64,000 nucleotides of DNA from NCBI GenBank assembly GCA_014905635.1, contig JABVCE010000010.1, positions 1,178,001 to 1,242,000 of the forward strand. Direction: 5' to 3'. Shown piece after piece: positions 782 to 61,556 of this stretch (position 1 is the first letter of the stretch; the number at the start of each line of letters is the position of its first letter). Below the pieces are notes generated by a model. It ran no database searches. It saw nothing but the letters and a program-made list of their open reading frames with translations, and was not told the DNA's origin. This DNA comes from Scenedesmus sp. PABB004. Lineage: Eukaryota. The translations under genes were made by a program, and so were the position numbers.

Positions 782-2394
782 ATGACGAGCTCGCAGCCAC
801 AGGCGGGCGCGCCGCCCGTGCGCATAGGTGCGCGGCCGCAGGGCGCGACGGGCGCCCCGGGACGAGCGCGGGCGCACGCGACCGGCGCCGGCGGCGCCGG
901 CGCCGCGGGCGCAGCCGCGCGGCCGCCGCCGCTGCTCCGCCGCTGCTGCCCCGGCGCGCCGCATTCGTCGCTGGCGCCCCCGCTGCTGGCTGCGAGGGCA
1001 TGGCGAGCTGGCGCCGCCGGCGCGTCCCCGCTGACGCTGCGGCCGCGACACCCGCGCCGCCCGCCGCGCCGTGCGCCGCCAGGCGTGCTCGCGCTGCAGG
1101 GCTCCTTCCGCGAGCACATGGCGCTCCTGGGGCAGCTGCCCGGCGTCGCGGTCACCGAGGTGCGCACGCGGGAGGAGCTGTCGGGCGTGGCGGGGCTCAT
1201 CATCCCGGGCGGCGAGTCGACGACGATGGCGCACATCGCCGAGAGCTGGGGCCTCATCCCGGAGCTGCAGGCGTGCCGCGCTGCTGCGCGGCGCCGGCGG
1301 GCGTCTGCGCCGCGCGCGCGCGCTGCGAGCAGCGCGGCTGCGGCTCACGCCGTGCGCCGCGCGCCACCCCTGTTCTGGCAGGCGTTTGCCAGGGCGGGCA
1401 AGCCGGTGTGGGGCACGTGCGCAGGCATGATCTTCCTGGCTGAGCGCGCCGAGGGTGAGCGGCGCGGCGGCGGCGGCGGCCTCTCCCTGCGCGCCCGCGG
1501 GCAGCCGGCGCGCGGCCGCCCCGCCGCCGCGCGGCGCGGCGCGGGGCGAGCCGGCGCGAGCGGGCGCCGCCGCCGCGTCGTCGCCGCAGGCCAGAAGAAG
1601 GGCGGGCAGGCGCTGCTGGGCGGGCTGGACATCTGCGTGTCGCGCAACTTCTTCGGCGCGCAGGCGCGGCGCCCGCGCCCGCGCCCGCGCCCGCGCGGCG
1701 GCGCCCGCTCCCTGCGCCCCTGCGGGCGGCGGGCGCGACCGCCGCGCCTCGCCGCGCCTCGCCCGCAGGTGAACAGCTTTGAGACGCAGCTGCCGGCGCA
1801 CGCCGAGCTCACGCGCTTTGGCGGCGAGCCGACCTTCCGCGCCGTCTTCATCCGCGCGCCTGCGGTGATGGAGGCGGGGCCGCAGGTGCGGCGGCGGGGG
1901 CGCGGCCGCGCGCCGCGCCAGGCGCGCCGGCTGGTAGTGAGCCGGCGAGCGGGGCGCGCCGCGCGCGCCGCCCGCGGGTCTGACGGTCGCCGGCGCGCGC
2001 GGGCAGGTTGAGGTCCTCGCGCAGTATACGCTGCGGCCGGACGAGGCGGCGGCGCAGGGCGGGCGCGCCGCGGTCGCGGTCGCGGTGCGCCAGGGGCCGC
2101 TGCTGGCGACGGCGTTCCACCCAGAGCTCACGCGCGACACGCGCTGGTGCGATGCGAACGCCGCCGGGCGCCGCCGGGCGCCGCCGGGCGCAAGCAGCGC
2201 GCGTGCCGCAGGCCGCGCTGACGCGCGCTGCCGGCGCCGGCCGCAGGCACCAGCTGTTTGTGGACATCGTGCGGCAGAACACGGCCGCCGTCGCAGCGGC
2301 GGCGGCGGACGCGGACGCGGCGGCGTGCGTGAAGGGCACGCGGCCGGCCGACCTGCCGGTGTACGGCCAGGAGTTCATGTCCGTGGCGCAGTGA
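782..2394 (+). CDS. PDX2: Pyridoxal 5'-phosphate synthase glutaminase subunit (spliced)
   Basis: Exonic motifs GVLALQGSFREH, LIIPGGESTTM, PVWGTCAGMIFLA (catalytic Cys), VSRNFFGAQ, FRAVFIRAPAV, LLATAFHPELT (His-Glu); stop TGA 2392-2394. Confidence 0.95.
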
Positions 2395-2611
2395 GCGGCT
2401 TGGGCGCAGTGAGCGCCGGCCGCTTGGGCGGCGCGGCGCGCGGGCTGCGGTGCGGCGGCGGCGGAAACCTGGCGGTTCGGCGCGGCGCTCGCGACGTTCC
2501 GCCCGGCTGCCTCTCTGATCGTCCAGCCCCGCGCGTGAGATCCTCCCCGCAGCGCGCGCGCACGCCGTCCCACGACCCGCAGCGCCGGCGCTCGCCGCAA
2601 CGGCGCGCACG

Positions 2612-3453
2612 ATGCTGTTGGCGTCCCGCGCCGGCGGCGCCGCGCGCTGCTGGCTGCGGCCGGCGCTGCCCGTGACCTCAGCCCAGCAGCGTCAAGTTGA
2701 GGCAAGCGCAGGCGGCGCGGGGGTGGCGCAGGCGGCGGCAGCAGCGCAGCGACAGCTCGCGCGCGGCCCGTTTGGTGCAGCCGCAGCGCGTGCGGCGCTG
2801 CCCGGCCGCCCTCGTGCCCCTCCCGTCGGCTGCCACCCGCCGGGACGCTGCGCGCGCGCCAACCGCCGCAACCGCCACCCCGCGCGCAGCGGCGGCGCAG
2901 CAGCGGCGGCCCGGCGGCGGCGCGGCGCCCGCACGGCGCCGAGTTCACGCTGAGCGCGGAGGACAAGCTGGAGATCATGGAGCTCTGCGTGCGCTTCGAC
3001 GACGCGCTCAACGGCGGCCGGCAGGCCGACCTCGGCGCGCTCTTCGCGCCCGAGCCGCGGCTGACGGTCGACCCGCAGTCGCCCGCCGCGCCGCCGCGCA
3101 CGGTCACGGGCCTCGCGCCCGTGCTCGAGTACTTTGCCGCGCTCGCGCCGTTTGCGGCGGGCAAGCGCCACCTTACGACCAACGTCGTCGTCGCGCCCGA
3201 CGGCCTGCGCGCGGCACGCGTGCGCGCGTGCCGCCTGCTGCACGCCGCGGCGAGCCCGCCGGCGCTGCTCGCGAGCGGGGTGATCGAGGACCGCGTGGTG
3301 ATGGTGGACGGCGAGTGGCGCTTTGAGGCGCGGGCGTTCACCATGGTGCGGCGCGCGACGCCCGCGCGCCGGCACCCGCGCTGCCGCGGCCGCGCCCTGA
3401 CCTCCGCGCCGCACTGCGCCGCGCAGGACCCGCCGGCGGCCCCGCCCAAGTGA
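2612..3453 (+). CDS. SnoaL-like / NTF2-fold protein (spliced; 5' exons approximate)
   Basis: LSAEDKLEIMELCVRFDDALN...LGALF...KRHLTTNVVV...EDRVVMVDGEWRFEARAF follows the SnoaL_4-type pattern; short last exon DPPAAPPK*. Confidence 0.75.
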
Positions 3454-3652
3454 GCGGGGCGGCGGCAGCTCGGGTATTGCGTGCGGGGCAACGGGCGGGG
3501 CGCCCTCGCAGCTGCCAGCACTTGCACCGCAGCGGGCGCGAACCGCAATCTCGGGCGGGGCTCGCGTGTGATCCGCACGGGCGCAGCGCCGCACGCTGTT
3601 GAAAGATGCAGCGTCTCGGCTTGGATGCGATGCAACGAATCCAATCCGCGGC

Positions 3653-5034
3653 TCACATGTCGTCAAACCACGCGTCCGCCGCGTCCTGGTCCTGGACCGC
3701 CGCCCACGCGTCGTCCAGCGCCGCGTCGCCGTCGATGTCGCCGTACGCCACGTGCGCCGACTCGAGCCCCAGCAGGAAGCGGCTCTGCATCTCTTCCAAC
3801 AACTCCTGCCGCCGCGCCCTCATCGCCGCGGCGCTCATGTCGGGCGGCGGCGGCTCGGCGGGCGCGGCGGCCGCGCCGCGCGCCTGGCGCCGCGCCGCGC
3901 GCTGGCCGCCGCCCGCTTCCTGCATCGCCGTGTCGCCGCCCGGCTGCTGCTGCTCCTGCTGCTGCTCGTCGCCGCTGTCGCTCGCCTCGTGCTCCGACGC
4001 CTGGCACTCCTCCTCGTCCAGCTGCTGCTGCAGCCGCACGCGCAGCAGCGCCTCGTCGTGCGCCCTGCACGGCGGCGGCGTCGGCGGCGGCGCGTCGGCG
4101 TGGCGGCTCCGCGCCCCTCGTGCGTGCCCGCGGTCGCGCGCGCGCACCTGAGCAGGCTGCCGGCGAAGCCCTCGCCCGGCGTGGGCGGCCCGCTCGGCGG
4201 CGGCATGCCTTCGAATTGCCCGATGAGCTCGTGCCTGGGCCAGCCAGCGCGCGGGGCGAGGCGCGGGGCGGCGCGGGCCCTCGAGCGCGGCGCGGCGGCG
4301 CAGGGGCTGCGGGCGCAGGCGCGCCCAGCGGGCGGCCTCGAGCGCCCCTGCCTGCCGCGCACCAGATGAGGGGCTCGCGGCTGCGCATCGCGTCCTCGCT
4401 GAAGAACTCACCGCCGTCGACCAGGCGCTGCATGTAGGCGAGCCGCCGGTTTGCCACGGTCTTGCTGACCTGCGCGCGCGCGCACGCGCGGCGGCGGGTC
4501 GACCGGCCGCGCGGGCGGCGCGGATGGCGGCGCGGCCCACCGCGGCGGGGCGGGGCTGGCGGGGCCGGCGCCGCGGCGCGCCTTTTTGTTGCTCGTCGCG
4601 GGCGCCGGCGGCGGGCCGGGCTGCGTCGCGGCGCGCGCCGCCTTCACCCAGTACTCCACTGCGGCGGCGCGGCGCGGCGCGGCGCGGCGCGGCGCGCGGG
4701 CGGGTGGGCGCCGGGCGCGCCGGGCGAACGTGGCGGCGGCGCCCCGCGGCGCGCGCTGTGGACGGGCACCCTCGTAGCTGGCCGCCTGGAGGCCGCTGAA
4801 GCCGTCCAGCTCCTCGGCCGTCAGCTGGGGACCGTAGCGCTCGAGGAAGACAGCGGGGTCGCGCGCGAGCAGCGCCGCGAGGTGCGCGCGCACGTCGGCC
4901 GGCTCCGGCGGCCCCCCCGCGCCGCGCGCCATCGCCGCCGGCAGGTGCAGCTGCTCCGCCGGCGCGCCGGCCAGGCGGTCCACCAGCGGCTCCGCGAAGC
5001 CCGGCGGCAGCGCGCCGCCGGCGTCGCCGTTCAT
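3653..5034 (-). CDS. CCDC97 / DUF2052-family protein (spliced)
   Basis: LLARDPAVFLERYG, VANRRLAYMQRLVDGGEFFSEDAMRSREPL, MQSRFLLG...YGDIDGDAALDD...DAWFDD* are characteristic of CCDC97 homologues. Confidence 0.85.
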
Positions 5035-5509
5035 GCGTGGAGCGCGCAGCGGAGCAGCGCAGCTGTCGGCAGCAGCAGCCGTCCCGGCGGTCGAGCGGTG
5101 GCTGCGTTGGCCGTGCAGGGAGAGTGCCGTGAAGGGGGCAGGGCGTCCCGCGGGCCTGCTGTGGTGGCGGGGCTGCACGCCGCGGAGGCAGCAGCACGGC
5201 GGCGCAGGTCTCGTCGCTCGTCGCTCGTCGCGTGCGGCCGCGGGCCTTCCGATCGGCGCGCGCCGTCCCGCCCGCTACTTGCGACGACGCGAGCGACCAC
5301 AGCGCCGCGCTACGCCCGTCGCGCGCGAGCCCCTCGCTGCTCGGGCAGCACCGCTCGCCCGTCTCGGCCGCTGGCCGCCGCAGCCTAGCCCGCGCGTCCG
5401 CGAGAGAGCGCCACGGGACCTTACCGCTGCCGCAGCGGCGCGGCCGGCGTGTGACGCGGCCGCGGGCCGCGGGCCGCCCGCCGCCGCCGCTGCTCTCGCG
5501 CGCGCCGCG

Positions 5510-6231
5510 ATGGCGGCGCAGCTCTACTCCAACACGCAGCTGGCGCAGGCGCTGTACGAGGTGCTGCAGGAGATGGTCGCCGACGGCAAGGTGCCAGAGG
5601 ACCTCGCGGTCGCCACGCTCGACCAGGTGCGGCAGCGGCGCGCGGCGCGATCACCGCGCGCGCGCGCCGCCGCCGCCGCCGCCGACGCGCCACCCGCCAC
5701 CCGCCTGCCCCGCCGCCCGCAGCTGGACCAGGCGAGCGCCGCCGGCGGCGCCCCTGCGACCGCCGCGCCCCCGCCGCGCGGCCGCGCCCGCCCGCGCCCG
5801 CGCCCGCCCGCGCCCACCGCGCCGCACCGCGCCGCTGCCGCCGCCGCCGCCGCCGGGGGCGGCGCGCAGTCCATCCTCGCGGCGCTGCGCAAGGAGATCA
5901 CGGCCAAGAGCGAGGTCAAGGGCAACCTCGACACGTACAAGTACTACGACAACGTGCGCCGCGCGGGCAGCCGCCGCGCCGCCGCCGCGCCGCCGCCGCG
6001 ACGCCGCCCCTCCGCCCGCCGCGCCCGCCGCCCACGCGGCCGCCGCGCGCCCGCGCGCCGCGCGCCGCGCGCGCCCTGCAGGTGTGGCAGTTCACGCTGA
6101 GCGACGTCGCGTTCAAGCTCAACGCGAGCGGCACGGGGTCGCTCAAGAAGGCGCCCGAGGTGACGTGCGACCGCGCCAAGATCGTGTGCGTCGACATCAA
6201 GCTCGCGCCAGAGAAGGACAAGCCCGAGTAG
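5510..6231 (+). CDS. TFIIA-S: Transcription factor IIA small (gamma) subunit, 4 exons
   Basis: Spliced product MAAQLYSNTQLAQALYEVLQEMVADGKVPEDLAVATLDQ-LDQ-SILAALRKEITAKSEVKGNLDTYKYYDN-VWQFTLSDVAF...KIVCVD matches TFIIA-gamma motifs (LY.T.L, G.L.TY...DNVW.F, KIV..D). Confidence 0.93.
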
Positions 6232-6783
6232 CGGAGCGGAGGCACGCGCGCGCCCGAGCGAGGGGCGCGAGCGCCGAAGCAGCGAGCGCGTCGCGCCGCG
6301 ACGCGGCGGTGTGGGGCGCGCCGGCGGCGTCGCGGCGGTGTGGGGCGCGGCGGCGGCGGCTTTTGTTAGAAGCGAGTTGCCGACAGGGGCCGCCCAGGAG
6401 GCGGTCCAGCGGCACCGCGAGCTGCGTGCACCTGCAGAAGCTTGCCACGCGGCGTCGAGCGCAGCAGCAGCGGCTGCACCGGCAGCGGCAGCAGCGTGAG
6501 CAGCGCCCTGCCGCTCGCCCTGTCCCTGCGCATCGCCACAGAGAGCCCCAGCGCGCCAGCTCCGCCTGGGCGTCGGTGGCGGGCGGGCGGCAGCAGCGCC
6601 GTCGCCCCGCCGCGCCGCGCCCTCTCCCTGAGCCGGGGCCGCGTTCTGCGGGGTCTGAGGCAGCTGCCCCTGAGCCTCAGACGCTGCCGCAGCAGCCGGC
6701 GTGGCGGGACCGGCGGCGCTAGGCCAGGCGCCGCGCGCGCTGCTGCCGCGCCCGTCGCCAGCGATGCCGGCCCGGGTGCAGCG

Positions 6784-8120: not shown

Positions 8121-8165
<45 letters not shown>

Positions 8166-9232: not shown

Positions 9233-9344
9233 CCCTCTCAACCGGCTGCTGATGATGATTCGGCCGCGTAAAGCGGTTGCCAAGGCGCCGCCGCCGCCTC
9301 GCCCGCGCGCGCAGCAGCTCTGCGCGGAGCGCCCAGCAGCGGCG

Positions 9345-11105
9345 TCACGGCTGGCCGGCGCAGCCCCCGGGACCGCCCTGAGCGCGAGCGTCAGCGCCTG
9401 CATGCGGAAGCGGCGGCGCGGCCGCAGAGTCAGCGAGCTGGCGCGGCGCGCACAGCGCACGCAGCACAGCGCGGCGCGCGGCCGCAGCAGCGCCGCCGCC
9501 CACCGCCTCTTGTTGTTCCATGATCTGGCTGGCCTCCACCAGCTTGGCCAGCAGCAGCCGCTCGCCCGCCGACTGCGCGTGCGCCTGCAGCTCCGCGAGC
9601 CCGCCCAGCGCGCCGGCGCCGGGGCCCACGACGCGCTGCTTGCGCACGCGCAGCGCCTCCAGCCGGCTGCGCATCGCCGCGAGCGCGTCGGCCGCAGCCG
9701 CGGCGTCGGCGCCACAGCAGGCGGGCGCTGCCGCCGGCTGGCCGCCGGCGTTGAGCAGATCGGCGTGCTCCCGCTGCGGAGGCAGCGGGCGGGCGCGCTC
9801 GGCGCGAGGCTGCGGGAGCGAGCGCAGCGCGCCGGCGCCGCTGACCGGCGCCCGCCCGGCGCAGCGCCGCACACCTCCAGCTCCCGCAGCGCCTTGCGCA
9901 GCGCGGTGTTGTCGGCGGCCAGCTCGCGCCTGTCCTCCTCGTGCGCCTCGGCCGCGCGCTGCGTTGCGTGCGCGGCGCACCCCCCGGCGGGCGGCGGGCG
10001 GGTCAGCGAGGCGGCTCGGCGAGGCGCAGGGCCCGCTGTGGGGCCGGGCGGAGCCCGCCGAACGCCCCGGCGCTGCCTCCGGGCCCTGCCCTCCCCCGCC
10101 CAGGGCTACCTTGACCATCTCCTCGAGCTCTGCCTTGGTGGCACGCCGCGTGTCACCGAGGCCGCCGCCCAGGGGCGGCGTGCGCGCGCCGCCGCCGGAG
10201 CTCGCGCACCTGCGCGTGCAGCCGGGCGGCGTCGTGCGCCGGGCCGCCGCCGCCGCCGCCGCCGCCGGGCGCGCCTGCCCCGCCCCGCCCGCGCGCCCCG
10301 CGGGCCCACCTGCCGCCGCCGGACGTGCCGCGCGCGCCGGCCGCCGCGCACGCGCCGCTGCTGCGTCGCCCGCCGGCGGAGAGGCGCGCGGCGAGCTGCT
10401 TCTGCAGCCGCTCAAACTCCCCGTCCTTGCGGCGCAGCTCGTGCTGGAACTGGACGTGCCGCTGCTCGAGCTGCGCGGCGCGCCGCGCCAGCTGCTCGCG
10501 CTCGCCGCCCCAGCGCTCCGCCTCCTCGCGGTACCAGGCGTCCAGCTGGCGCAGCTGCGGGGGCGAGCGCGCGCGAGCGGCACGCGCGCGTACGCGTGAG
10601 GGCTGGTGGCGAGCGGCCGGCGCAGCGCGCGCGGCGGCGCCAAACCGCGCGCCTTGATCGCCAGACCGCCGGCCTCCTGCGCCTTTGCCTCGCTCTGCCC
10701 CTGCAGGCGCTGTATCGTCCGGTCCGCGATGCGCACGTCGAGCCGCAGGCGGCTGAGCTCCTCCGCGGTTTTTTCGCGCGCCGCCGCGCCGTCCTGGTGC
10801 GCGCGCACGAGCTCGTAGAGCGCGTTCAGCAGCGCCGCGGGCTCGCCGCCGCGCAGCTGCCACTGCGCGAGGCCCAGCTCCGCCAGCACCGGCTCCAGGT
10901 AGGCCGCGCAGCCGGCGACGCTGCCGGGCGTCGCAAAGGGCTCCGGCGCGGCGGCACGCGGCGACGCGTCGTCCTCCGGCGCGCCGTCGCCGCCGCCGTC
11001 GCGCGGCGAGCGCGGCAGCGAGCCGAGCGCCGCCTGCTGGCCGGGCGGCGTAAAGGGCGAGGCGCTGCCGGGCGCGCGGTCGGCGTAGAGCCCCGCCGAG
11101 GCCAT
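9345..11105 (-). CDS. Afadin/alpha-actinin-binding (ADIP / SSX2IP / Msd1-like) coiled-coil protein (spliced; 3' end uncertain)
   Basis: FATPGSVAGCAAYLEPVLAELG...LLNALYELVRAHQD...REKTAEELSRLRLD...QFQHELRRKDGEFERLQKQL follows the ADIP-family N-terminal pattern; ATG at 11105. Confidence 0.7.
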   Translation of the reverse strand: MASAGLYADRAPGSASPFTPPGQQAALGSLPRSPRDGGGDGAPEDDASPRAAAPEPFATPGSVAGCAAYLEPVLAELGLAQWQLRGGEPAALLNALYELVRAHQDGAAAREKTAEELSRLRLDVRIADRTIQRLQGQSEAKAQEAGGLAIKARGLAPPRALRRPLATSPHAYARVPLARARPRSCASWTPGTARRRSAGAASASSWRGAPRSSSSGTSSSSTSCAARTGSLSGCRSSSPRASPPAGDAAAARARRPARAARPAAAGGPAGRAGGAGQARPAAAAAAAARRTTPPGCTRRCASSGGGARTPPLGGGLGDTRRATKAELEEMVKVALGGGGQGPEAAPGRSAGSARPHSGPCASPSRLADPPAARRGVRRARNAARGRGARGGQARAGRRQHRAAQGAAGAGGVRRCAGRAPVSGAGALRSLPQPRAERARPLPPQREHADLLNAGGQPAAAPACCGADAAAAADALAAMRSRLEALRVRKQRVVGPGAGALGGLAELQAHAQSAGERLLLAKLVEASQIMEQQEAVGGGAAAAARRAVLRALCAPRQLADSAAAPPLPHAGADARAQGGPGGCAGQP

Positions 11106-11525
11106 CGCGGCGCGCGCCGAGCTGCTGCTGCTCCGCCGCGGCGCGCGGCGCCGCCGTCCCCCCGGCCCCGCGCGCGCCCGTGGATGCAAAGCCGCAGGGA
11201 TGGCCAGGCCCGCCGCCGCCCAGGGAGCCCCCCGCCCGCCTGCGGTGCGCGTGCAGGCCCCGCGCGTGTTCGGGAGGCGTCTGCCGCGCGCCTGGGCGCG
11301 GGCCGGGGGCGCGGGCGCGCGTGGGCGGTGGGGCGGCAGGGGCGGGCTCTGGGGCGGCGGGCGGCGCCCACCTGTCGCTACAATTCGCGCCTAAGCCGCG
11401 GAAAGCCCCGCGCGATGCCTGCGCGCGCCATAGCGCGCCGCCCCGCCCGCGCCCGGCCTTCCGGCCGGTTCGGTCGGCCCGCTGGTGCCGCTCCACGCGC
11501 CCGACCCCGCAGCAGACCTACCACC

Positions 11526-15277
<3,752 letters not shown>

Positions 15278-20600: not shown

Positions 20601-20785
20601 GTCTCCTTGCTGTCCAGGATGCGGGTGGTGCAACGGCGGGCCGTGCACGCGGGGATCTGGGCCGGGCAAGACACGCCGCTCTGGAGCAGCTGGCGGCTGG
20701 CGGCGCTGCGGCCGGCGGGCGCCGCGGAGGCCAGGGCCGCGAGGCCCAGCAGCAGGACGGCCAGGGTGGCCGTGCGAGCTGCCAT
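17604..20785 (-). CDS. Secreted cysteine-rich repeat protein (CPxGxY/F repeats, GCC2/ephrin-receptor-like type), copy A, 5 exons
   Basis: Signal peptide MAARTATLAVLLLGLAALASA, then RQLLQ. Repeated C-P-x-G-x-[YF] and CxxC modules, four GT-AG introns, no transmembrane segment seen, ends ASFTWA*. Confidence 0.88.
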
Positions 20786-25713: not shown

Positions 25714-28700
25714 ATGCGGGATGTGATGGGGCTCTGGCTGCTGGCGCTGCTCCTGGCGGCGCCCGTGCTGGGCTCCGGCGCGGAAGCCAACGCGTCCATC
25801 ACGCCCCCGGCGCCGGAGCCCGCGGGCGGGGCGCGCGCGCTGCTGCAGAGCGGCGTGTCCTGCGCGCCCCAGATCCCCGCCTGCACGGCGCGGCGCTGCA
25901 CCACCCGCATCGTGGCCAACAAGGAGACATACGTCTGCCTGCGCTGCAAGCCGGGCTACGTGCCCGTGCTCGGCGCCGACCGGCGCAGCATCGTGCAGTG
26001 CGGTGAGTCCCGGGCGCACAGCGCCCAGCGCGCAGCCCGGCGCCGGCGGCGGCTTTGCGGGCGCGCCAGGCAGCGGCGCCGCGCGCAGGTGATGCCGCGC
26101 GTCGTTCGCTCACGCGCGCCCCTCGCCCCCGCCCGCCGCAGTCTGCCCGCGAGGGCTGTGGGAGTCGCCGGTCACCAACAGCTGTGTGGAGTGCGGGCGC
26201 GGCTTCACGTGCGCGGGCGGCGACCGCGCCGCGACGCGGCCGAGCGACGACCGCGGCAGCCGGCGGGCCTGCAACCCAAAGGACACCGTCGGGCTGACCA
26301 CAGTCAGCACGCGCGCCACTGCGCTCAGCGAATGCGGTGGGTGCCCGCGGCGGCGCGCGGCTGCGGCGCAACGGCTCCCAGCGCGCGGGCGGCCGCCGCT
26401 GACCCCCACCCCCTCTGCCCTCTCCGCAGTCGCGCTCGCGGGGTATGCGCTGCCGCGCGCGACTGGCATGGCGGCGGTGGAGTGCCCCGCCAGCACCTAC
26501 ACGCCGGCGCTCAACCGGCTGAGGTCCTGCCTCCCCTGCCAGTCGGGCCTCAGAGAGGACCCAGCGTTCACTGCGAGCGGCACGCCGCGCGGCAGCCGCA
26601 CAGATGTGTGCAGTGAGTGGCACCGCGGCGCGGCGCGCCGGGCCGCCGCCGCAGCCCGCCGCCCGGCGCGGCGCGCGACACGGCGCGGCGTGCGCTCACC
26701 CCGCGCCGCGCGCGCTCGCAGAGGTGCCGCCCGGCAAGTTCTGGGAGCTCAACGTCGTCCGCGACTGCCCCAAGGGCCTCTACCGCGAGGGCTTTGCCAA
26801 CACCACGGACGCGGCAGCCATCCGCTGCCTCTCCTGCCCCGAGGGCTGGACCACGTCCGGCACGGCCGCCACGTCCGTGCTCGCCTGCAACCGTGAGCGC
26901 CCCGCGCCCCGCACGCGCCCGCCGGCGCCGCCGCCGTCCGCCCCGCGCGCGCGCAGCGGGCTCACGCATGTCTGCCCTCCCCCACACCGCCCGCAGGGCT
27001 GCTGCCCGGCTTCAAGGTGACGTCCCTGGAGGCCGGCGGCCAGCCGGGCCTCGCCCAGGAGGACTCCATCCTTGGCTCGCCGACGGAGGCCTGCCCGCTC
27101 GGCTTCTACTTTGACGGCGCGCCCGGGACCTTTGGCTGCCAGCGCTGCCCCTTTGGCACGGTCACGCGCGAGCGCGGCACCGAGAGCGCCAACGACTGCC
27201 TCGTGCCGCCCGGCTACTACGTGCAGGCGCCGCCCGGCGAGGCGCCGCGCCTCGCCAAGTGCCCCACCAACGTCACCGCCGCCGCCGACGGCCCGCCCAG
27301 CGGCTTCTACCGCACCGGCTGGGTGCCGCCCACGCCGGCCGTGATGGACGCCGACGGCACAAAGGCGTGCACGCCGTGCGGGGTCGGCATCCTCAGCAAG
27401 TGGGCCGACCCAGACGAGCAGACCGACGTCGCGGTGCTGCGGGCCACCGCGGTCAACGGCACCGGCGAGGCCGCCGCCGCGGCTGCGGCCGCCGTGGCGA
27501 GCGCCAGCGCCCAAGACCCGGGGTATGGCTGGGTCGCGAGCTCCTCCGCCTCTTGCTGTGAGTCGCGCCGCCCGCCGCGCGCCGCATGCCGCGCGTCGCG
27601 GCCCGCACGCCCCTGGGCAGCGTGTCCGCCGCTGTCTGTCACTCATGCCCTGCGCGCGCCCCGCTCACCCACAGACATCAAGGCCGGCTGGGGCATCACG
27701 TTTGACCCCGCTGACTTCAGCAAGCTCCGCGCGGTCATCCCCTGCCCCGCCAACACCTACGGCGTCGCCGGCGACACGTTCGGCCTCTACCTCATGCCCT
27801 GCAAGGTGCGCGCCCTGCAGCCCCGCCGCCCGCAGTTGGCACAGCACGCGCAGCCGGCCGCGCGCGCCGCCGCGGCCGCGCCGCCGCGGCGCCGCGCGCC
27901 TCGCGCCGGCGCAAAGCGCCGACGCCGCCCGCCTGCCCGCGCCGCCGCGCAGTCGTGCACCAAGAACCTGAAGTCGGCGCCCGGCTCCAGCTCCGCCGCC
28001 GACTGCAAGAACCCCGCCGGCTTTGGCTACACCTCGGAGGGCGCCAACCAGTGCCCCGACGGCTTCTGGGCGGCCGCGGCGAGCATGGACCCGTGCGAGC
28101 CGTGCCCCGAGGGGCGGTACACTGACTACTTCCCCGGCGACGGGCAGTACCAGTCGTCGATCGATTCCTGCAAGGCACGCAGCGCCCGCCCGCCCGCAGC
28201 CCCGCCGGCCGCCGCGGCGCCCGCCACGCGCTGGCGCACGCGTGTTTGTTGTCCGGCTCACCCCGCCCCGCGGCGCGCGCGCAGGTGCCCAAGGGCTATG
28301 GCGTGTTCAACGGCCTCGCGGACGACCCCTGGGCGCCCGAGGCGCCCAGCGCGTCCATGGGCGTGCGGCAGTGCCCCGACGGCTTCTCCAGCCCCGGCGA
28401 CCAGGAGCTTGGGGGCAACACGAGCAACCCCGTGTGCACACGCTGTGCCGCGGGCTCCGCCACGTCCGGCCCCGGCGCCGAGAGCTGCAACGGTGAGCGC
28501 GCGCGCGCAGCACGGCCGGCGCCCGCGTGCGCTGGCCTGCCGCGCCGCCGCCGCCGCGCCGCCGCCGCCGCGCCGCCTCACCCCGCCCGCCGCCGCCGCG
28601 TGCGCAGTGTGCATGGCCGGCTGGGGCGGCCCGCCCGGCGCGTGCGCGGTGTGCCCGCGCAACACCTACCAGCCCGGCGCCGAGTGGGGCGACGGCTCGA

Positions 28701-30427: not shown

Positions 30428-31661
30428 TCACGGCCCGCCCCCGCCAGCGTCGGCATCTGGCAGGCCGAAGAACGCGCGCGCGACGGCGCTGGTCCGCGCC
30501 GCGACCGCCGCCTCGTCCTGCCCCAGCGCCGCCGCGACCGCGGACAGCACGTGCGGCAGCAGCGCCGGCTCGTTGCGGCTCGGCCGCGCCTTGGACGGCG
30601 TGATGCTGCGCGGCACGAGGTAGGGCGCGTCCGTCTCGATCATGAGCCGGTCGGGCGGGATGCGCGGCAGCAGCGCCGCGAGCTCCGCGCCGCCGCGCTC
30701 GGGCGGTCGTCCGCGATCCACCCCGTGATGCCGATGCAGAGCCCCAGGTCGAGGCACGCGGCCAGCTCGTCGCCGTTGCCTGTGAAGCAGTGCAGCACGC
30801 CGCGCACGCCCGCGGGGCCGCCCACGTCCGCGCCGCGCAGAATCTCCGCGAAGCGCGCGCCCGCGTCGCGGCAGTGCATGAAGAGCGGCTTGCGCAGCTC
30901 CAGCGCGAGCGCGACCTGCGCCTCGAACCAGCGCTCCTGCACGTCCGGCGGGCTGAAGTTGCGGTTGAAATCCAGCCCGCACTCGCCTGCCGCCGGCGGC
31001 GCGCGGCGGCGGTGCGGCGCGCGGCGGTGGCGCGGCGCGCGGCGTCGGCGCGGCGTCGGCGCGGTGGGGGCGCCGCCCGCGCCGGGCGCGCCGGGCGCGC
31101 ACCGATCGCGACGCAGCGCGGGTGGCACGCGAGGTCGCGCAGCGCGTCGAGCGTCGCGCCGTCGCAGTCCTTGGCGTTGTGCGGGTGCACGCCGGCGGTG
31201 AAGTAGAGGGGGTAGCCGGCCTCGGCCTCGCACAGCGCGCGCGCCGCGCGCGCCGAGGCCACGGTGCAGCCAGTCACCACGATTGCGGCCACGCCCGCCT
31301 CGCGCGCGCGCGCGATCACCGTGTCGCGGTCCTGCCGGCGGCCGGTGCGCGCGCGTGGGCGGGCGGCGGTCGGCCGGCGGCGGTGGCGCGCGCTGCAGCA
31401 GCCCCCCCGCGGGCCGGGCGGTGGGGTCCCGGTCGGGCGCGCCTTGTCAAAGGCGCCGTCCACGAGGTTGACGCCAACGTCTATCAGCGGCACGGGCGAC
31501 CGCCGGAGCTGCGCTGCGACCAGCTCGCCCTGGGAGAGCTTCGCCTTGGTCATCACGCCGCTGCTGCGGCGCACCGGCGAGCGGACCGAGCCCTGGAGCG
31601 GGCTCCGCAGCAGCAGCAGCGAGCGTATGAGCGAGCCCTGGCGCGCGCTCCGCAGCAGCAT
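30428..31661 (-). CDS. TATD: TatD-family DNase (spliced); apparent 1-nt frameshift near 30700
   Basis: [73 protein letters not shown]-terminal extension looks like a targeting peptide. Confidence 0.92.
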
Positions 31662-35547: not shown

Positions 35548-37898
35548 CTCCGGCTGCTGCTGGGACCGCCACTGCCGCCGCTGCCACCGCCGCCGGGCAC
35601 GAAGCAGCTGCTCGCGAGCTGCGAGCCATGCAGGCGCGCGGCTGCGCGCCCCGTGCAGCGGCCGCCCGCCGCCGCGTCCTCCGCCGCCAGCTCTGCGAGG
35701 CTGCGTCGCTGCTGGTTTTGGTCTCTGTGATCGCGCGCGCGCGGCGGCGGCCCGCCTCAGCCGCCGCAAGGCCGGGCTCTTGGCCGCCAGCCTCACGAGC
35801 GAGGCGGCCAGCTGCCTGCGCCGGCGCGCACCTGCAGTTCCAGCACCCCAGCGTGGTGGGCGACTCGGGCTGCGCCGCGGGCGAGACGGGCCCGCCATCC
35901 CACACGAGGTCGAAGCCGCCCTGGCGGGCGGGGGGCCTGCTGCCGGGCTCGCGCCGCCCCTCCAGGTCGACGATGTCCAGCATGTCCTGCGCCGCCAGCG
36001 CGGCGGCGGGGCGGGGCGGAGCTGAGGTCGGGTGGCGCCGGCGTACCCGGCCGACGCGCGGTTGCGCGTGGCCTGGGCGGCCAGCGCGCACGTTGAGCAT
36101 GCCAAACTTGAGCTCCCAGTCGGCGCGGTCCGAGGCGGTGAGGCTGGGGCTCGCGTTGACCTCGAGCAGCCAGGGCTTGAGCGCGCTGTCGATGAGGACG
36201 TCGTAGCCGTAGAGCTGCAGCGGCGGCGGCGAGCAGCGGGGCGTCGCGCGGCGTCCAGCGCGGCGGCGACCGGCGCGGCGGCGACCGGCGCGGCGCGCGC
36301 GCCCCGGCGCGCTGCGCGCCTCAAAGGAGTGCTTGTCGTTGATCATCGCCGGCTGCACCGCGAGCAGCGCGCGCAGGACGACGCCCTGGATCGCGGCGAA
36401 GAGCTCGTTGGTCGCGTCCGCGCCTGTGGCGCGCGGGCAGGGGCTCAGCGCGCCGCGCGCCGCGCGGCCCGGGGCCGCCGCCCCGCCCCGCCCCGCCGCG
36501 CCCCGCCGCGCGGCGCGCACCGTGGCGGCTGGTGAGGTAGAGACGCAGGCTGCGGATGGGCCACTTCATGCCCCGGTGGAAGCCGGGCGTGTGCTTCTGG
36601 ATGGCCACGTTGGTGAGGTGCACGTAGGCGTTGCCGATGTCCTGCTTGCGCATGCTGAAGCGCACGTTGGTGAAGCGCGCAAAGCCGCTCCTGCGCGGCG
36701 CGGGCGCCGCGTCACGGCCCGCGGCGGCCCGGCGCGGCAGCCAGCAAGCTCCGCAGCCAGCCAGCGGCACACAGCCTGTGCACGACGCGCGCGCACCGGT
36801 AGAGGTGCACGCGTAGCGGCGCGTGGCTCGTAACGAGGGCATAGATGCGGAGGTCAAACTTCTTGCCGCCCACCAGGTAGGGCGCGTCGACGTAGCGCTG
36901 CGCGAGGTACGCCTCGGGCGGCTCCGCCGCCGCCGCGGCGCCGCCGCCGCCTCCGCCGGGCGGCGGCCGCGGCGCGCCGCCGGCGCCCGCGCCGCCGGCG
37001 CCCGCGCCGGCCTCCGGGCGCCACGTCGTGTCGCGCCGCCAGTCGCTGATCTGCGCGCGGCGACGCCCGGGGGCGCGGCGCTCGCGCGGCGCGGACGGGG
37101 ACAGGCCGGGCGCGGCGCGGCGCGGCGCGGCGCGGCGCGGCGCGCTCGGCGCTCGTCCTGCAAGCGCGGGCGCGCCTGGCTGAGCTTGTTGAACAGGAAG
37201 ATGCCCTGGCCCTGCGCGCGGCTGGTGGGCTTCATGATCCAGGTGCCGCCGCTGCGCTTGAACTCCTCCACAAACATGCGGTACTCGCCGGGCAGCACGT
37301 AGCTCGCAGGGAAGAACGCGTACGCGCCCGCCTCGGCGCCGCGGCCCTGCGCGCGCCGCGCGGCGGCGGCGGCGGCGGCGTCGCCGCGCGGCGCCGCACC
37401 GCGCCGCGCGGCCAGCCGCGGCGGGCCGTGCGGCCAGCGAGCGGCGGCGCGCGCCTCGCGCTCGAGCTGGCGCTTGGTGCGCTTGAGGTTTTTGATGAGC
37501 AGGTCCTTGCGCGTGAGCTCGTAGTGGTTGGGGAAGTGGTTGATGCGCTGCCAGTCGGCGAGGTGCGTCTTGTCGAGCTCGTGGTGGATCCAGCTGCGAG
37601 GCAGCAGCGGCGGTCGCCGCCGCCGCGCGCCGCTGCGGCGCGCGCCGGCTGGGGGCGCGCGGCCGCACCCTTTGTCGGCCCAGAAGAAGTCCCACGCCGT
37701 CTCGTGCTCCGTCTCCTGCCAGCCGGGCCGCGCGCGCAGCACGTCGTAGACCGTGTTCTTCAGCGACGAGCGCCACACGATCGGCCCCCTGCGGGCGGCA
37801 GCGGCGGCGGTCGGAGGCGCGCCAGGGAGCTCGCGGCCGCGCCGGCGGCAGGCCTGCGCCACCACGCACGGGGGCCGCCCGGCCGTCCGGCCGGACAT
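35394..37898 (-). CDS. TTLL9: Tubulin polyglutamylase, TTLL9-like (spliced)
   Basis: WDFFWAD, RINHFPNHYELTRKDLLIKNLKR, WIMKP..RAQGQGIFLF, GGKKFDLRIYALVTS, VHLTNVAIQK, NDKHSFE/LYGYDVLID, PWLLEVNASPSL, GGFDLVW. Confidence 0.88.
35506..35550. repeat. (CTG/CAG)n tract in the last TTLL exon (poly-Ser in the inferred frame)
   Basis: About 11 uninterrupted CTG units followed by interrupted ones. Confidence 0.8.
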
Positions 37899-38477: not shown

Positions 38478-41507
<3,030 letters not shown>

Positions 41508-47871: not shown

Positions 47872-47872
<1 letters not shown>

Positions 47873-48322: not shown

Positions 48323-49228
48323 CTACACATACAGCTCCTCGTCGCCGCGCGCCGGCCCCGCGCTGCCGGGGTTGCTCCAGCCCTGCGTCGCCACGAGCCG
48401 CACCTGCGGGGCGGGGCGGGGGCGGGGCGGGGCGCGTGGGCCGCTGGGCGGCGCGGGCGCGCCGCGGGCGCGGCGCGGGCGCGCACCTGCGCGAGCACGT
48501 AGACCGCCCGGACCACGCGCGCGTAGTCGGTGCCGACCGCGGCCCTGACCAGGTCGACCGCGAGCCAGGCCCACATGACCGGCCCCAGCAGCGACAGCGC
48601 GCCCTGCACCGCGCTGTAGCGCAGCGTCGCGCTCGTGAGCCCCCGCTGCGCCGCCGCGAGCGCGGCCTGGCGCTGCCACTGCGCCAGCACGCCGCCCGCG
48701 GCGCCGCTCGTGGCCGCCTGGGCCACGGCCTGGTAGCGCAGCTGGCGGCCGAGCAGCTGGCGGCCGAGCTGCGCGGCGCTGCGCCGCATCACGGCGGTGA
48801 GCGTGACCGCGCTCGTGAGCTTCAGCGCTGGCGGCAGCAGGTCGCGCCCGCCGAAGCGAAACGGCGCGGTGAGGCGCTCCGTCCAGTTGGACCGCGGCGG
48901 GCCGCTCGGGGCGCTGCGGCGCGGCCGCGGCGAGCGCGCGGGCGCGGCAGCGGTGTCGGCGCCCGCAGCGGCGCCCGGCGGCGGCGGGCGCGCGGCGCGC
49001 CGGCCGGCGGGGCGGCCCCACCTCGTCATGCCGTCGCCCTCTGCCGCGTAGGCCACGGCGGCGGCGGCGGCGGGGTCGGGGTCGCCCTCGGCGCCCACAT
49101 ACTCCAGGCAGTGCTGCAGGACGTGCAGGAAGACCTCCGACTCGAGGTCTGGCGTGGTCAGGTTGCTGCTGCACTCGACGCCCAGCCTGTGCGGCGCGCG
49201 GCGCGGCGCGGGCGCGCAGGTGGGCGGC

Positions 49229-49260
<32 letters not shown>

Positions 49261-49948
49261 CGCCGCCGCCGCCCGCCGCCGCCGCGCGCCTGTCGCGTAT
49301 GAGCAGCAGGGCCTCGCGGTAGCTCGGCCGCTTGCCGCGCATCGTGGCGCTGCTGTCGGCGGCGAGGAAGCGGAAGCGCGCCTCCACCTGCGCGCAGCGC
49401 GGCGGCGGCCGCGGCGGCGGGCGTGCCCGTTGATCGCGTGCGCGTGTGCGCCGCGGGCGCCTCCGCCGCGGTCGCGGGCGCCCCCGCCGCGGGCGCGCCT
49501 TGTGCATGATGCTGGTGCGGCCGCGCAGCTGCAGCAGCGCCGGCTCGTCCTCGGTCACGATCGACTTGACGACCGGCGAGAAGGGGCTCGCGCCAAACAG
49601 GATGCCGTACAGGCCCTCCAGCTCCTCGTCGCTGCACAGGTCGAGCACCTCCCACAGCTCGGCGTCCACGTCCAGCCGGCTCACGGGCTCGGTCAGCACG
49701 AGCGCCCCCGCCGCGGCGGCGCCGCCGGCGTTGCCGCCGCCGCCCGGGCGCAGGGCCGCCGACGGGGCTGCGCTGCGCAGCGGCGCGGCCCCGCGCGCGG
49801 CGCCACGCGCGGCGCCGCTGCCGCTGCCGCCGCTGCTGCTGCTGCCGCTGCTGCCGCGGCCGTGCATGCACGGCGCTGCTGCCGGGCGGCCGGCCCTGAG
49901 ATCTGGTCCGCCGGCGGCTGGCCGGCAGCGCGCCTGGGCGAGCTGCAT
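48323..49948 (-). CDS. Conserved plastid-type protein related to cyanobacterial YaaW-like proteins (spliced)
   Basis: ELWEVLDLCSDEELEGLYGILF, VEARFRFLAADS..TMRGKRPSYREALL, LTTPDLESEVFLHVL, LLGPVMWAWLAVDL..AVGTDYARVV.AV..LAQ/VRL; transit-peptide-like N-terminus. Confidence 0.75.
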
Positions 49949-55900: not shown

Positions 55901-56143
55901 CCGCTGCTGGTGGAGGCTGGCCGCAACGCCGCCGAGTGGGACGTCGATGAGTGCAAGACCTACGCCACGTGCAAGGCCGCGTGCATGTCCAACGGCGCGT
56001 GCTGGGGCTTCCTCTACGTCCCCACCAAGGGCTGGACCCTGCGCGGCGGCGAGGCGACCCTGGGCGCCCGCTCCTTCTTCGTCAGCCCCAACGGCGCTGA
56101 CGCGTCCGGCCCCGCCGACATGGCCAGCTTCACCTGGGCCTAA
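52921..56143 (+). CDS. Secreted cysteine-rich repeat protein, copy C (full length, 5 exons)
   Basis: Same protein as copy A except for visible D/N (CPADK vs CPANK) and S/T (CKSY vs CKTY) changes; introns at ~53180-53313, 53515-53671, 54017-54176, 54658-54776; stop TAA 56141-56143. Confidence 0.9.
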
Positions 56144-57783: not shown

Positions 57784-58813
57784 ACGGCCACGCCCACGGT
57801 ATCACGCAGGGCACTGCGGCTACGTGGGCACTGCCGCCCCGTGCGCGCGGCAGCCGCCCGAGCGCCGCCGCGGCAGCCGCTGCCGCCGGACGACCTGCTG
57901 CGCGCGGAGCCGGGCCGGGGCCCTGCGCACGGGTGGTGGCACACCGGCGTCCACTACGTGGCGATGGAAGTGCGGGACTACGAGCTGGACCAGTTCAGCG
58001 TCGTGAACAACGCCGTGTACGCGAGCTACGTGCAGCACGGTGCGGCGCGCGCGAGTGCTCGCACGGGCCCGCCGGCCGGCAGCCGCCCCCGCGCGCCGCG
58101 GCGGCCCAGTGCCGCGGCGGCCGGCGCAGGCCGCCACAAGGCGCTGGCGAGCCTGGGCCTGCACGTCGAGGGCTTTCAGGAGGCAGGCACGCTCATGGCG
58201 CTGTCACAGCTGCATCTAAGTTTCCGGCAGCCGCTGCGGGCCGGCGACACGTTCCTTGTGACGACCGCAGTCAGCGCGGTGTGCGCGCAGCGGCTGGCCC
58301 GACCACTCCCGGCGGCAGCTTTGCGCCGCCGGCGCGCCCGCGGCGGCGGCCGGGGCGGCAGTGGCACCGCGGGCGGCGGGCGCGCCGGCGGCGGGCGCGC
58401 CGGCGGGACGGAGCCGCCGCCGGGAGTGGTCGGGCCAGCCGCGCTGCGCACGCCGCGCTGACCGCTGCGCCCGGCGCTGCGCTGCGCGCTCTGCAGGTTT
58501 CCGCGGCCCGCATCGTCATCGACCACACGTGCCAGCGGGTCACGGGCCACTCGGATGGCGGCGACGCCCCGCAGGCGCGCTGCGGCGCGCCCTGCGGAGA
58601 GGCACCTTTCCGCGCGGGGCTGGCCGGCCGCCAGGGTGCGCGCGCTGCAGCGCGCTCACACACCGCGCCGCCGCCGCGGCGCAGGTCGTGTGCCAGGGCC
58701 AGGCGACGGTGGTGTTCCTGGACGCTCGGTACCGCCCCGTGCGCGTGCCCGCGGGCGTGCGCGACACGCTCGCGCCGCTCGCCGCCGAGTACGCGAGCGG
58801 CGGCGGTGCGTAG
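57631..58813 (+). CDS. Hotdog-fold acyl-CoA/ACP thioesterase, ALT/MKS2 (4HBT-like) family (spliced)
   Basis: MEVRDYELDQFSVVNNAVYASYVQH/GRH, MALSQLHLSFRQPLRAGDTFLV, VSAARIVIDH, ATVVFLDARYRPVRVP; stop TAG at 58813; likely ATG at 57631. Confidence 0.88.
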
Positions 58814-58828
58814 GGCTGTTTGAAACCT

Positions 58829-59550: not shown

Positions 59551-59898
59551 GTGCCGCCAAATCGCGGCTGCGTGCCCTCCTCGCGCTGCTCCGCTGCGAG
59601 CCGATTCCGGGCGCTCTCACGCCGGCGCGTGGAGGTGCGCGCTGCCGCGTTCGTGGCGCGCGTGGCCGCGGGGCAGAGTGCGCGCGCGGCGCTGGGGCGT
59701 GGCCGGCATCGCCCCCGACACCCCTCGCCTGCTGTCGCCGGCGCGGCCCTGAAGCGCGCGGCGCCGGCCTGGGCGTCGTTGATCCAGCGGCCGGGCGAGC
59801 GCGCCGCGGCGCGCCGGCCTCACTCCTGGTGTGGCCGCGAACGCCGCCGCCGCTCCTGCCGCCGCGCGCAGGCATCGTGAGCGGTCGTGGCCGGCAGC

Positions 59899-61556
59899 AT
59901 GCACCACCACCACATGGCTGACGCGACGGCCAAGCAGCAGGCCGACGCGCAGCACCTGGCGCCGCACGGCGCGGGGGCGGCAGCAGCAGACGACGTCGAG
60001 CGCGCCGGCGACCAGGCCCTGCCGCGCGGCAGCGCGCCCGCCGCCGTGGCGGATGCAGGCGCGGAGGTCGACGACGAGCACGTGCACTACAGGCGCGCGG
60101 GCCGCGCGCGGGGGCGGCGCCGCTCGCCGCGAGCAGGCCGTAGCCACCGGGTCACGGGCCTCGGGGCGCTGCGCGACGCCGGCCGCCGCCGCCGCGACCG
60201 CCGCCGCCGCCGCAGCCACCGCGCGCCCTGGCTGCGCGCATTTGTGCTGGGCGCCAACGACGGCCTGGTCAGCACCGCGAGCCTGATGCTCGGCGTCGGC
60301 GCGGGCGCGGGCGAGGGCGCGGGCGCGCTGCGCGCGATGCAGCTCGCTGGCGTGGCGGGGCTCGTCGCCGGCGCGCTCTCCATGGCCGCAGGCGCGGCGC
60401 GCCAGGCGCTGGGCCGCGGGGGCTGGGCCGCGGGCCGCGGGCCGCGGGCCGCGGGCCGCGGGCCGCGGGCCGCGGGCGGCGCGGCGCGGCGCGCCCGCCC
60501 GGCCGGCCGGCCGGCCGCTGTGCCGGCGGCGCCGCCCCGCCGCCTCACGCGCGGCCGGCCGCCACTGCGCCCACGCGCCTGCGGTGCAGGCGAGTACATA
60601 AGTGTGGCCTCGCAGAAGGACGCCGAGGAGGCTGACATTGAAAAGGTGCGCGCCGGGCCGGCGCCCGCGCGCGGCGGGCAGGAGCACGCGCGCCTCTGCC
60701 AAGCGCGCCGCCGGCGCCCCTGCCGCGCGCGCGCAGGAGCGCCAGGAGCAGCTCAAGGGCGCGGCCGCGCAGGCCCGCGAGTTTGAGGAGCTGGTGCGCA
60801 CGGCGCCGCCCCAAACCGCCGCCCTCAAACCCCGAGCCCCCCAGGCGGCGGCGCTCGAGCGGCGTCGGGGGCTCGCGCTCAGCCCGCGCCCGCTCCGCGC
60901 CCGCAGGTCCAGATCTACGTGCAGCGCGGCCTCAGCGAGCCGCTCGCACGCCAGGTGCGCCCGCCCGCCCGCGCGCCGCGCGAAGGCGGCCCCGCGCCGC
61001 GCCGCCACGCCGCCGCCGCGCGCCACACACGCCACGCGCCGCCGCCGCCGCCGCCGCGCGCCAGGTGGCCGCCGAGCTGACGGCGCACGACGTCATCCGG
61101 GCGCACGCGCGCGACGAGCTCAAGATTGGTGAGCCACGCCCGCCCGCCCGCCCGCCCGCGTCGCGCACCCGCCCGCGTCGCCCGCCGCCGCGCTCGTCCG
61201 CGCCCGCCCGCCCACCCGCGCCCCCCGCTCACCCGCGCCGCGCAGACCTCGACGAGCTCGCCAACCCGCTGCAAGCCTCCGTCACGAGCGCGCTCGCCTT
61301 CTCCATTGGGGCGGGGCTGCCCCTGCTCGCGGGCGCGTTCGTGCAGCCCTGGCGCTGGCGCATCGCCGCCGTGTGCGTCGTGAGCGCGCTCGCGCTGCTC
61401 GCGTTTGGCGCGCTCGGCGCCGCGCTCGGCGGCGCGGGCGTTGGGCGCGGCGCGGCGCGCGTGCTCACGGGCGGCGCGCTCGCCATGGGCGTGACGTACG
61501 GCATCGGCGCCGCGTTCGCGACGGCCGCGGGCCCCGAGTTTCGCATGGGCGCGTGA
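59899..61556 (+). CDS. VIT1/CCC1-family vacuolar iron/manganese transporter (spliced)
   Basis: HRAPWLRAFVLGANDGLVSTASLMLGV, AGLVAGALSMAA/GEYISVASQKD, IYVQRGL, AHARDELKI, NPLQASVTSALAFSIGAGLPLL, AMGVTYGIG; TGTAA at ~61872. Confidence 0.93.

Follow-up and report, generated by a model that had tools for sequence, protein, structure and literature searches.

The window analysed here, a 64-kb stretch of the chlorophyte Scenedesmus sp. PABB004 (assembly GCA_014905635.1, contig JABVCE010000010.1, positions 1,178,001 to 1,242,000, forward strand), harbors 19 predicted introns that begin with GC instead of GT and end in AG (GC-AG introns), against 68 GT-AG introns in the same census, i.e., 19 of 87 introns or 21.8%. 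Their donors follow a strict pattern, AG/GC (the slash marks the splice boundary), and most of them read AG/GCGCG. With a rough probability of 0.78, they represent ordinary spliceosomal introns of the U2 type in which G+C pressure converted a GT donor into GC, a change tolerated with compensation at the neighbouring donor positions. At the level of the sequence, the existence of GC-AG introns at these sites was confirmed, in that their predicted removal restores both reading frame and homology.

The G+C content of the window ranged from 71 to 81% across 4-kb bins. According to PMC12571836, the PABB004 genome comprises 39.8 Mb and 7,092 genes at 78.5% GC, the highest GC in the Sphaeropleales comparison table given there. 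On the plus strand, the dinucleotide GC occurs 13,141 times and GT 2,470 times, a fivefold difference. Since GC is so much commoner than GT, apparent GC donors could arise by chance, and three tests that do not assume GC donors were therefore applied. Coding segments were delimited by a codon-usage hidden Markov model (HMM) without any splice signal, which was used in place of a GC-only periodicity HMM that fused exons over in-frame introns; it yielded 129 coding segments on both strands, revealing a window dense with intron-rich eukaryotic genes.

Between adjacent exon segments on the same strand, all G...AG pairs that keep both frames open were listed. No frame-compatible GT donor was found from -24 to +60 nt at 17 of the 106 junctions, and the claimed GC sites account for 10 of these 17. 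Expectation-maximization (EM) over the candidate pairs, constrained only by G at +1 and AG at the intron 3' end with position +2 left free, returned T at 0.63, C at 0.35, G at 0.01, and A at 0.02 for +2, and GG was nearly never picked, although it is about half as frequent as GC in the sequence. The top EM choice coincided with the claimed donor at 17 of the 19 sites, with a posterior of at least 0.96 for 16 of them. The two misses, 5732 and 60392 (sites are designated by the coordinate of the donor end), occurred because adjoining exons, of 9 nt and, after 60392, of 56 nt, had been overlooked, and both were recovered by inspection. Moreover, both strands together contain 86 occurrences of the motif AG/GCG[CT]G, and 14 of these lie within 6 nt of sense exon 3' ends compared with 1.1 expected, an approximately 13-fold enrichment at exon ends that were placed without splice signals; the antisense mirror control gave 0 and exon 5' starts gave 2. 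Variants lacking the exonic AG were not enriched at exon 3' ends, neither [CGT]G/GCGCG (9/811 vs 10.6 expected) nor A[ACT]/GCGCG (1/139 vs 1.8 expected).

An earlier note, made by eye on this DNA, had placed GC donors at about 20 sites, most of them GCGCG and all after an exonic AG, and had described GT donors as mostly GTGCG or GTGAG without need of that AG. All of this was borne out. The 19 listed donors read AG/GC on their gene strand without exception (19/19), with the core GCGCG in 16 and GCGTG (1271), GCGAG (5732), and GCACG (28175) in the remainder, whereas the exonic AG precedes 18 of 64 GT donors (Fisher p = 6.9e-9), which read GTGCG (43/64) or GTGAG (15/64) in most cases. Beyond the second position, the two classes share one donor consensus: positions +3 to +5 are GCG or GAG in 17/19 GC and 58/64 GT donors, and when only distinct contexts are counted, G occupies +5 in 15/15 and 49/49, G occupies +3 in 14/15 and 49/49, and C or A occupies +4 in 14/15 and 46/49, respectively. 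Likewise, all 19 GC introns end in AG, the CGCAG acceptor (consensus CGCAG/G) is found in both classes (13/19 and 47/64), and the median intron lengths are 111 nt for GC and 121 nt for GT introns. U12-type donors carry an ATCC-like box at +3 to +6; no such box was found in the 19 GC donors, whose tetramers at these positions are GCGC, GCGG, GCGT, GTGC, GAGC, and ACGC. In other organisms, GC donors depend on neighbouring donor positions that fit the consensus more closely, and the strict AG requirement in the window suggests that GC is still the weaker donor.

Homology provided further evidence. Database searches used contiguous references (single exons extended into introns, or in-frame read-throughs), and spliced models were scored with local HMMs built from homologues. 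Exact removal of the intron gave a gapless or profile-continuous match to homologues at 17 of the 19 sites, and the segments, if kept as coding, appear as Arg/Ala/Pro-rich inserts missing from all homologues. The lengths of 10 of the 19 introns are not divisible by 3, so that the frame would break if they were kept, and 9 are divisible; three sites (5732, 37454, and 60093) have a GC donor and no GT-AG alternative whatsoever. The coordinates are collected in Table 1.

Table 1. Predicted GC-AG introns of the window and the putative micro-exon adjoining one of them (exonic letters in lower case, slash at the splice boundary)
Feature	Positions	Strand	Donor	Length (nt)	Remark
GC-AG intron, PDX2/PdxT	1271..1381	+	cag/GCGTG	111	
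GC-AG intron, PDX2	1664..1768	+	cag/GCGCG	105	
Micro-exon, TFIIA-gamma (inferred)	5723..5731	+		9	CGCAG acceptor to AG/GCGAG, 3 residues
GC-AG intron after micro-exon, TFIIA-gamma	5732..5869	+	cag/GCGAG	138	
GC-AG intron, ADIP-like	10555..10652	-	aag/GCGCG	98	Frame broken if kept
GC-AG intron, DDX3/Ded1	13033..13240	+	cag/GCGCG	208	Frame broken if kept
GC-AG intron, DDX3	14283..14761	+	cag/GCGCGT	479	Ambiguous
GC-AG intron, Cys-rich paralogue D	28175..28284	+	aag/GCACG	110	Frame broken if kept
GC-AG intron, TatD	31332..31442	-	aag/GCGCG	111	
GC-AG intron, TTLL9	36215..36319	-	gag/GCGCG	105	
GC-AG intron, TTLL9	37051..37175	-	cag/GCGCG	125	Frame broken if kept
GC-AG intron, TTLL9	37347..37454	-	gag/GCGCG	108	
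GC-AG intron, katanin p60	39689..39818	+	cag/GCGCG	130	Frame broken if kept
GC-AG intron, katanin	39928..40024	+	aag/GCGCG	97	Frame broken if kept
GC-AG intron, katanin	41299..41423	+	cag/GCGCG	125	Frame broken if kept
GC-AG intron, YaaW-like	49187..49289	-	cag/GCGCG	103	Frame broken if kept
GC-AG intron, YaaW-like	49388..49498	-	aag/GCGCG	111	
GC-AG intron, hotdog thioesterase	58575..58684	+	cag/GCGCG	110	Frame logic only
GC-AG intron, VIT-family	60093..60215	+	cag/GCGCG	123	
GC-AG intron, VIT-family	60392..60589	+	cag/GCGCG	198	Following exon 60590-60645 found by eye

In three genes, the model with GC donors outscored every alternative tried. For katanin, it reached 741.8 bits compared with at most 729.0 bits for 35 GT alternatives: the best of 27 GT alternatives at 39689 scored 705.4, the best at 39928 scored 729.0, and the sole one at 41299 scored 711.3, and the spliced junctions were gapless in 61/62, 61/62, and 59/62 homologues, respectively. 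For TTLL9, the GC model scored 650.6 bits and the 13 variants with a kept intron or a GT donor at most 633.6. At 36319 (gapless in 8/9 homologues), keeping the intron lowered the score to 628.6 and any GT alternative to 598.3 or less; at 37454 (gapless in 7/9), keeping it gave 633.6; and at 37175, where the best GT alternative scored 631.9, the junction was gapless in 5/9 homologues, the rest carrying insertions or truncations, and 19 of the 20 flanking residues shown match Tetradesmus TTLL9. For the VIT-family transporter, the GC model scored 258.1 bits against at most 254.7 among 12 alternatives. At 60392, the score fell to 235.7 with the intron kept and to 208.0 with the best GT alternative, the Pfam VIT1 profile runs continuously through 50, 51, and 52, and the junction is gapless in the 14 alignments shown, and the junction at 60093 rebuilds a His-rich motif before the WLRA box, a motif that the listed homologues carry in uninterrupted form. 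Searching PDB with the VIT read-through query gave no match at E <= 1.

The other genes are consistent with these results. In PDX2, the junction at 1271 aligns without a gap to PdxT 1q7r, with Q62 at the end of exon 2 and A100 at the start of exon 3 corresponding to chain residues 88 and 89, the Pfam SNO profile runs on without interruption at about 61-63, and the closest GT alternative (+2/+11) would lose 3 residues. The second PDX2 intron, at 1664, contains no internal GT at all, and GT alternatives would cost at least 9 or add 15 residues; exon 4 closes with the conserved FG.Q, the beginning of exon 5 corresponds to about 108-109 of the SNO profile, and the two halves of a conserved motif lie on the flanking exons. 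In TFIIA-gamma, joining exon 1 to the next long exon leaves the protein 3 residues short of its human (39 to 43) and yeast (42 to 46) counterparts. No GT-AG alternative exists at 5732 within -60 to +120 nt, and a GC donor here, with the putative 9-nt micro-exon filling the gap, is probable. The ADIP-like gene has no frame-compatible GT at 10652, and its Pfam ADIP profile is continuous, exon 1 ending at 95 and exon 2 starting at 96. In the DDX3/Ded1 helicase, the junction at 13033 falls on residues 229 (exon end), 230 (split codon), and 231 (start of the next exon) of human DDX3X 7liu and on 240, 241, and 242 of yeast Ded1 8pnk, and that at 14283 is likewise gapless against DDX3X 6o5f (422, 423, 424). 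The latter intron is the longest GC candidate and is packed with tandem GGCGG/CAGG-rich units.

Paralogue D at 28175 matches, without a gap, the unbroken 1365-nt exon of a paralogue within the window (17607-18971), and the first 60 nt of its intron hold no GT. At 31442, TatD is gapless against 3rcm (chain 16-17 followed by 18-19), the alignment with 1xwy begins at the expected residue at the intron 3' end, and no frame-compatible GT lies nearby. A one-base frame shift in a conserved stretch was also observed in TatD at about 30690-30710 (-), where the 44-nt gap between segments leaves no room for an intron; this shift near 30700 may reflect either misassembly of a C run or a genuine frameshift. 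In the YaaW-like gene, 49289 lacks a frame-compatible GT and is gapless in the 4/4 relatives spanning it (P0152, P0160, P0162, and P0163), and 49498 is gapless against 5 spliced relatives. For the hotdog thioesterase at 58575, no frame-compatible GT was found within -24 to +60 nt, and wider ones would lose at least 4 or add 13 residues.

The public annotation treats GC introns inconsistently. It removes five of them exactly as the models presented here do, namely three katanin introns and both introns of this kind in the YaaW-like gene. The curated katanin model with its 12 introns is identical to NCBI AAA1 [Scenedesmus sp. PABB004] over 551/551 residues, and two other public proteins encoded on the same contig (1,269,045 bp), Ttll9 and HT031_003724, are 100% identical over the query exons. 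The public Ttll9 protein (P0121, 661 aa; 35837-37781, minus strand) keeps the GC introns 37454 and 36319 as 36 and 35 residues, replaces 37175 by a GT 19 nt upstream with the loss of eight conserved residues, reads through the in-frame GT intron 37668, and gains 15 residues at the junction of the GT intron 36091; scored with the homologue HMM, the spliced TTLL9 model lies 17-29 bits above variants differing at a single site. Similarly, the public YaaW-like model (HT031_003724, P0147) keeps a 108-nt in-frame GT intron, 48914-49021 (-), as 36 residues that are missing from the relatives spanning that junction. In addition, the TTLL9 of Monoraphidium minutum (P0124) carries a 24-residue insert, starting Ala-Arg-Ala, exactly at the junction equivalent to 37175. 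This single case suggests that an in-frame intron with a GC donor may have been kept in the predicted protein of another GC-rich member of the Sphaeropleales.

Orthologous positions in relatives point to a change from GT to GC. Among 80 metagenome loci compared for katanin, introns at orthologous positions were found in L080 only, most of the others being intron-poor or distant. This metagenome contig, with 56% GC, reads GTGAGT at the position and phase of 39689 and AAG/GTGCGC at those of 39928. For the YaaW-like site 49498, unspliced relatives read GTN right after the same lysine in 12/12 cases where PABB004 reads GCG, which indicates a GT donor at this position. At the position of 41299, L080 shows a single unbroken exon (L080:3027-3347) that matches the spliced reading of PABB004, which implies gain or loss of an intron between these close relatives as well.

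The census combined GT introns accepted by EM at a posterior of at least 0.95 (59 rows, one with a re-curated acceptor) with 9 curated GT introns and the 19 GC introns. Collapsing identical contexts gave 19 GC against 64 GT introns (22.9%). The GC-AG share ranges from 17%, if all 23 uncounted junctions are GT, to 32%, if 16 GC picks among them are real; the upper figure is distrusted because at least four similar GC picks were artefacts of missed exons. Specifically, EM made 20 GC picks outside the claimed sites, and at least 4 of these (1894, 39034, 58183, and 60397) stem from missed or cut-off exons. Among homology-checked gene models, a hand tally gave a GC share of 18/52, which is biased upwards since the genes were chosen in a way that enriches GC sites. 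The by-eye estimate of 15-20% in the earlier note was thus right about the high frequency, its exact figure being slightly low, and a share far above the roughly 1-2% usual elsewhere was upheld. A whole-window gene-structure search by dynamic programming with learned position weight matrices (PWMs) was rejected for the census, as it over-predicted: with the GC prior set to 0.2, 0.01, and 0.001, it called 528, 448, and 432 introns, respectively, including antisense and intergenic ones. It nevertheless reproduced the curated PDX2, TFIIA (with the micro-exon), TTLL9, and YaaW-like models and, for katanin, all twelve curated introns except for a shifted fourth donor, with one extra call, and it broke 14283-14761 into several false introns. 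Three further AG/GCGCG...CAG candidates, 4470-4581 (-), 3806-3883 (-), and 10210-10274 (-), which lie within genes and are absent from the earlier note, come from this over-predicting search only.

The proposed explanation, the simplest one, extends to a larger scale what is already known of GC donors. Pressure towards G+C, through biased mutation or biased gene conversion, would turn the T at +2 into C, at the cost of one base pair with the U1 small nuclear RNA (snRNA), and this loss would be tolerated where the neighbouring positions pair fully. Such a change may survive only where the exon ends in AG and both +3 and +5 are G, which in effect means AG/GCGCG. GC donors would thereby have accumulated until roughly a fifth of the introns carry them, and GT donors next to weaker exon ends would remain GT.

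Several points weigh against this reading. Splicing at the GC sites is predicted from the DNA. A search for splice joints in the reads of four metagenome runs against positions 1-20000 at 90% likeness yielded none that was clean, mostly foreign partial matches and low-complexity joints; the nine candidate runs had shares no higher than 0.14, the single RNA run among them being a metatranscriptome at 0.06, and this result is uninformative on splicing either way. Individual sites differ in strength. Site 5732 depends on the putative 9-nt micro-exon; at 14283, a GT donor and an acceptor both 4 nt downstream would give a product of equal length with one residue changed, GC being favoured because the shifted GTGGCG donor and GGCAG/C acceptor fit the local consensus worse; the flanking exons of 58575 gave no Pfam match; and the gain at 60093 over the kept intron is only 3.4 bits (258.1 vs 254.7). 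With regard to frequency, 16 of the 23 uncounted junctions carry non-AG or low-confidence GC picks, the census covers one 64-kb window of one genome, and these same sites contributed in part to training the PWMs and to deriving the AG rule. The direction from GT to GC is read from only three orthologous positions, and the absence of 41299 from L080 implies that descent from an old GT intron does not hold for all GC introns. Furthermore, an unchanged U1 is an assumption; an Rfam scan of the 64 kb gave no match at all, and hence no U1 or U6 snRNA gene within the window.

It is unlikely that the spliceosome itself has adapted, the reading put forward in the earlier note, with a change in U1 snRNA, U6, or U1C reading C at +2 like T and making GC a full-strength donor. 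A GC-AG share of about 22%, tenfold that of Chlamydomonas, fits such a change, and the authors of the Emiliania study call GC donors a 'new canon' for that genome (PMC4028052). A full-strength GC donor would not need the exonic AG, yet AG precedes 19/19 GC donors compared with 18/64 GT donors, exon ends show no excess of GCGCG when AG is missing (9/811 vs 10.6 expected), and GT still accounts for the majority of introns (about 78%); adaptation of the spliceosome is therefore less likely than tolerance with compensation. It is quite unlikely, too, that AG/GCGCG constitutes a fully competent second donor class served by a shifted U1, U1C, or U6, or that it is a less efficient class whose in-frame retention is regulatory or produces isoforms.

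Very unlikely is the possibility that the GC sites are no donors at all, the segments being kept as coding or nearby GT donors being used. This is what NCBI Ttll9 does at 37454 and 36319 (kept) and at 37175 (the GT 19 nt upstream), and 9/19 introns are divisible by 3. However, retention would disrupt the frame in 10/19, no GT-AG alternative exists at three sites, and 17 junctions have no GT within -24 to +60 nt; the GC model outscores every alternative in katanin, TTLL9, and VIT, and the kept segments would be inserts foreign to all homologues, with the public annotation itself splicing five of the introns. An assembly or base-calling error that wrote C for T at +2 in GC-rich DNA is extremely improbable: the window does contain one or more probable frameshifts, by error or mutation (TatD near 30700), but random T-to-C errors would not hit only donors preceded by AG (19/19), nor affect 19 donors while leaving every acceptor and every G at +1 intact. 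Tolerance of GC with compensation, in ordinary U2-type introns, is thus the reading that we prefer.

The genes of the window named by Pfam and PDB matches comprise PDX2/PdxT, a SnoaL-like protein, TFIIA-gamma, an ADIP-like coiled-coil protein, DDX3/Ded1 helicase, a Cys-rich ephrin-receptor-like family, TatD, GILT, TTLL9, katanin p60, SART-1, a VIT-family transporter, a hotdog thioesterase, and a subtilase. The Cys-rich family is associated with a segment of about 4.8 kb that is present in three almost identical copies, at 17607-20773 (-), 22376-25117 (-), and 52933-56140 (+), two in tandem and one inverted, each with one Cys-rich secreted-type gene with ephrin-receptor-like repeats and a lower G+C content, about 71-72% compared with about 80%. 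The introns in these three lower-GC copies are 11 GT and 0 GC, with donors of the GTGAGT/GTGGGT type. Paralogue D, 25720-29707 (+), is diverged and GC-richer and has additional introns, including the one GC-AG intron listed in Table 1.

PABB004 and Chlamydomonas belong to the same class, Chlorophyceae. The GC-AG introns of the window are of the same type as those of Chlamydomonas and human, the GC donor otherwise matching the organism's own GT consensus. They are about tenfold more frequent in the PABB004 window than in Chlamydomonas reinhardtii, for which Table 2 of PMC2846911 lists 532 GC-AG against 25,053 GT-AG introns from expressed sequence tags (ESTs); in human, GC-AG introns amount to about 1% (PMC3167603). 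Closer parallels are found in other GC-rich algae. In the haptophyte Emiliania huxleyi, GC donors account for 56% of 241 curated junctions, 9 of which were confirmed by reverse-transcription PCR (RT-PCR), and the authors tie the share of 56-60% to the 65% GC of the genome (PMC4028052). As in Emiliania, a GC-rich algal nuclear genome has a large GC-donor share among U2-type introns with AG acceptors, and automatic models mis-predict them; unlike Emiliania, with 56-60% at 65% GC documented by ESTs and RT-PCR, the present case is a chlorophyte with about 22% in the window analysed, at 78.5% GC, predicted from DNA. The strict exonic-AG rule was measured here and is not stated in the passages of the Emiliania paper drawn on. 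In pelagophytes, predicted GC-AG introns reach 14-17% in Aureococcus anophagefferens and about 14% in Pelagomonas calceolata, compared with 0.32% in the lower-GC Aureoumbra, and the authors likewise link the frequency, similar to that in the window, to high GC (bioRxiv 10.1101/2024.10.30.620910). The pelagophytes differ in being stramenopiles with 0.1-0.9 introns per gene and figures from gene prediction, whereas the genes of the window are intron-rich, with up to 12 introns in katanin. The tie between the excess and extreme GC content proposed in the earlier note thus agrees with what has been published for other GC-rich algae.

No description of PABB004 introns or of a high GC-AG share in green algae was found in the literature searched, supplements not covered, and the words 'intron', 'splice', and 'GC-AG' do not occur in the accessible text of PMC12571836. 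Frequent GC-AG introns have been published before for GC-rich algae, and PABB004, as judged from this window, is a clear and extreme example in a new lineage: a chlorophyte would join haptophytes and pelagophytes as a GC-rich alga with many GC-AG introns, supporting the view that splice-site make-up tracks genome composition in any lineage. Moreover, the strict AG/GC rule provides a clear and testable view of the donor-U1 pairing that a GC donor needs. In practical terms, gene finders that do not accept AG/GC donors may introduce false Arg/Ala/Pro-rich inserts into the proteins predicted from such genomes.

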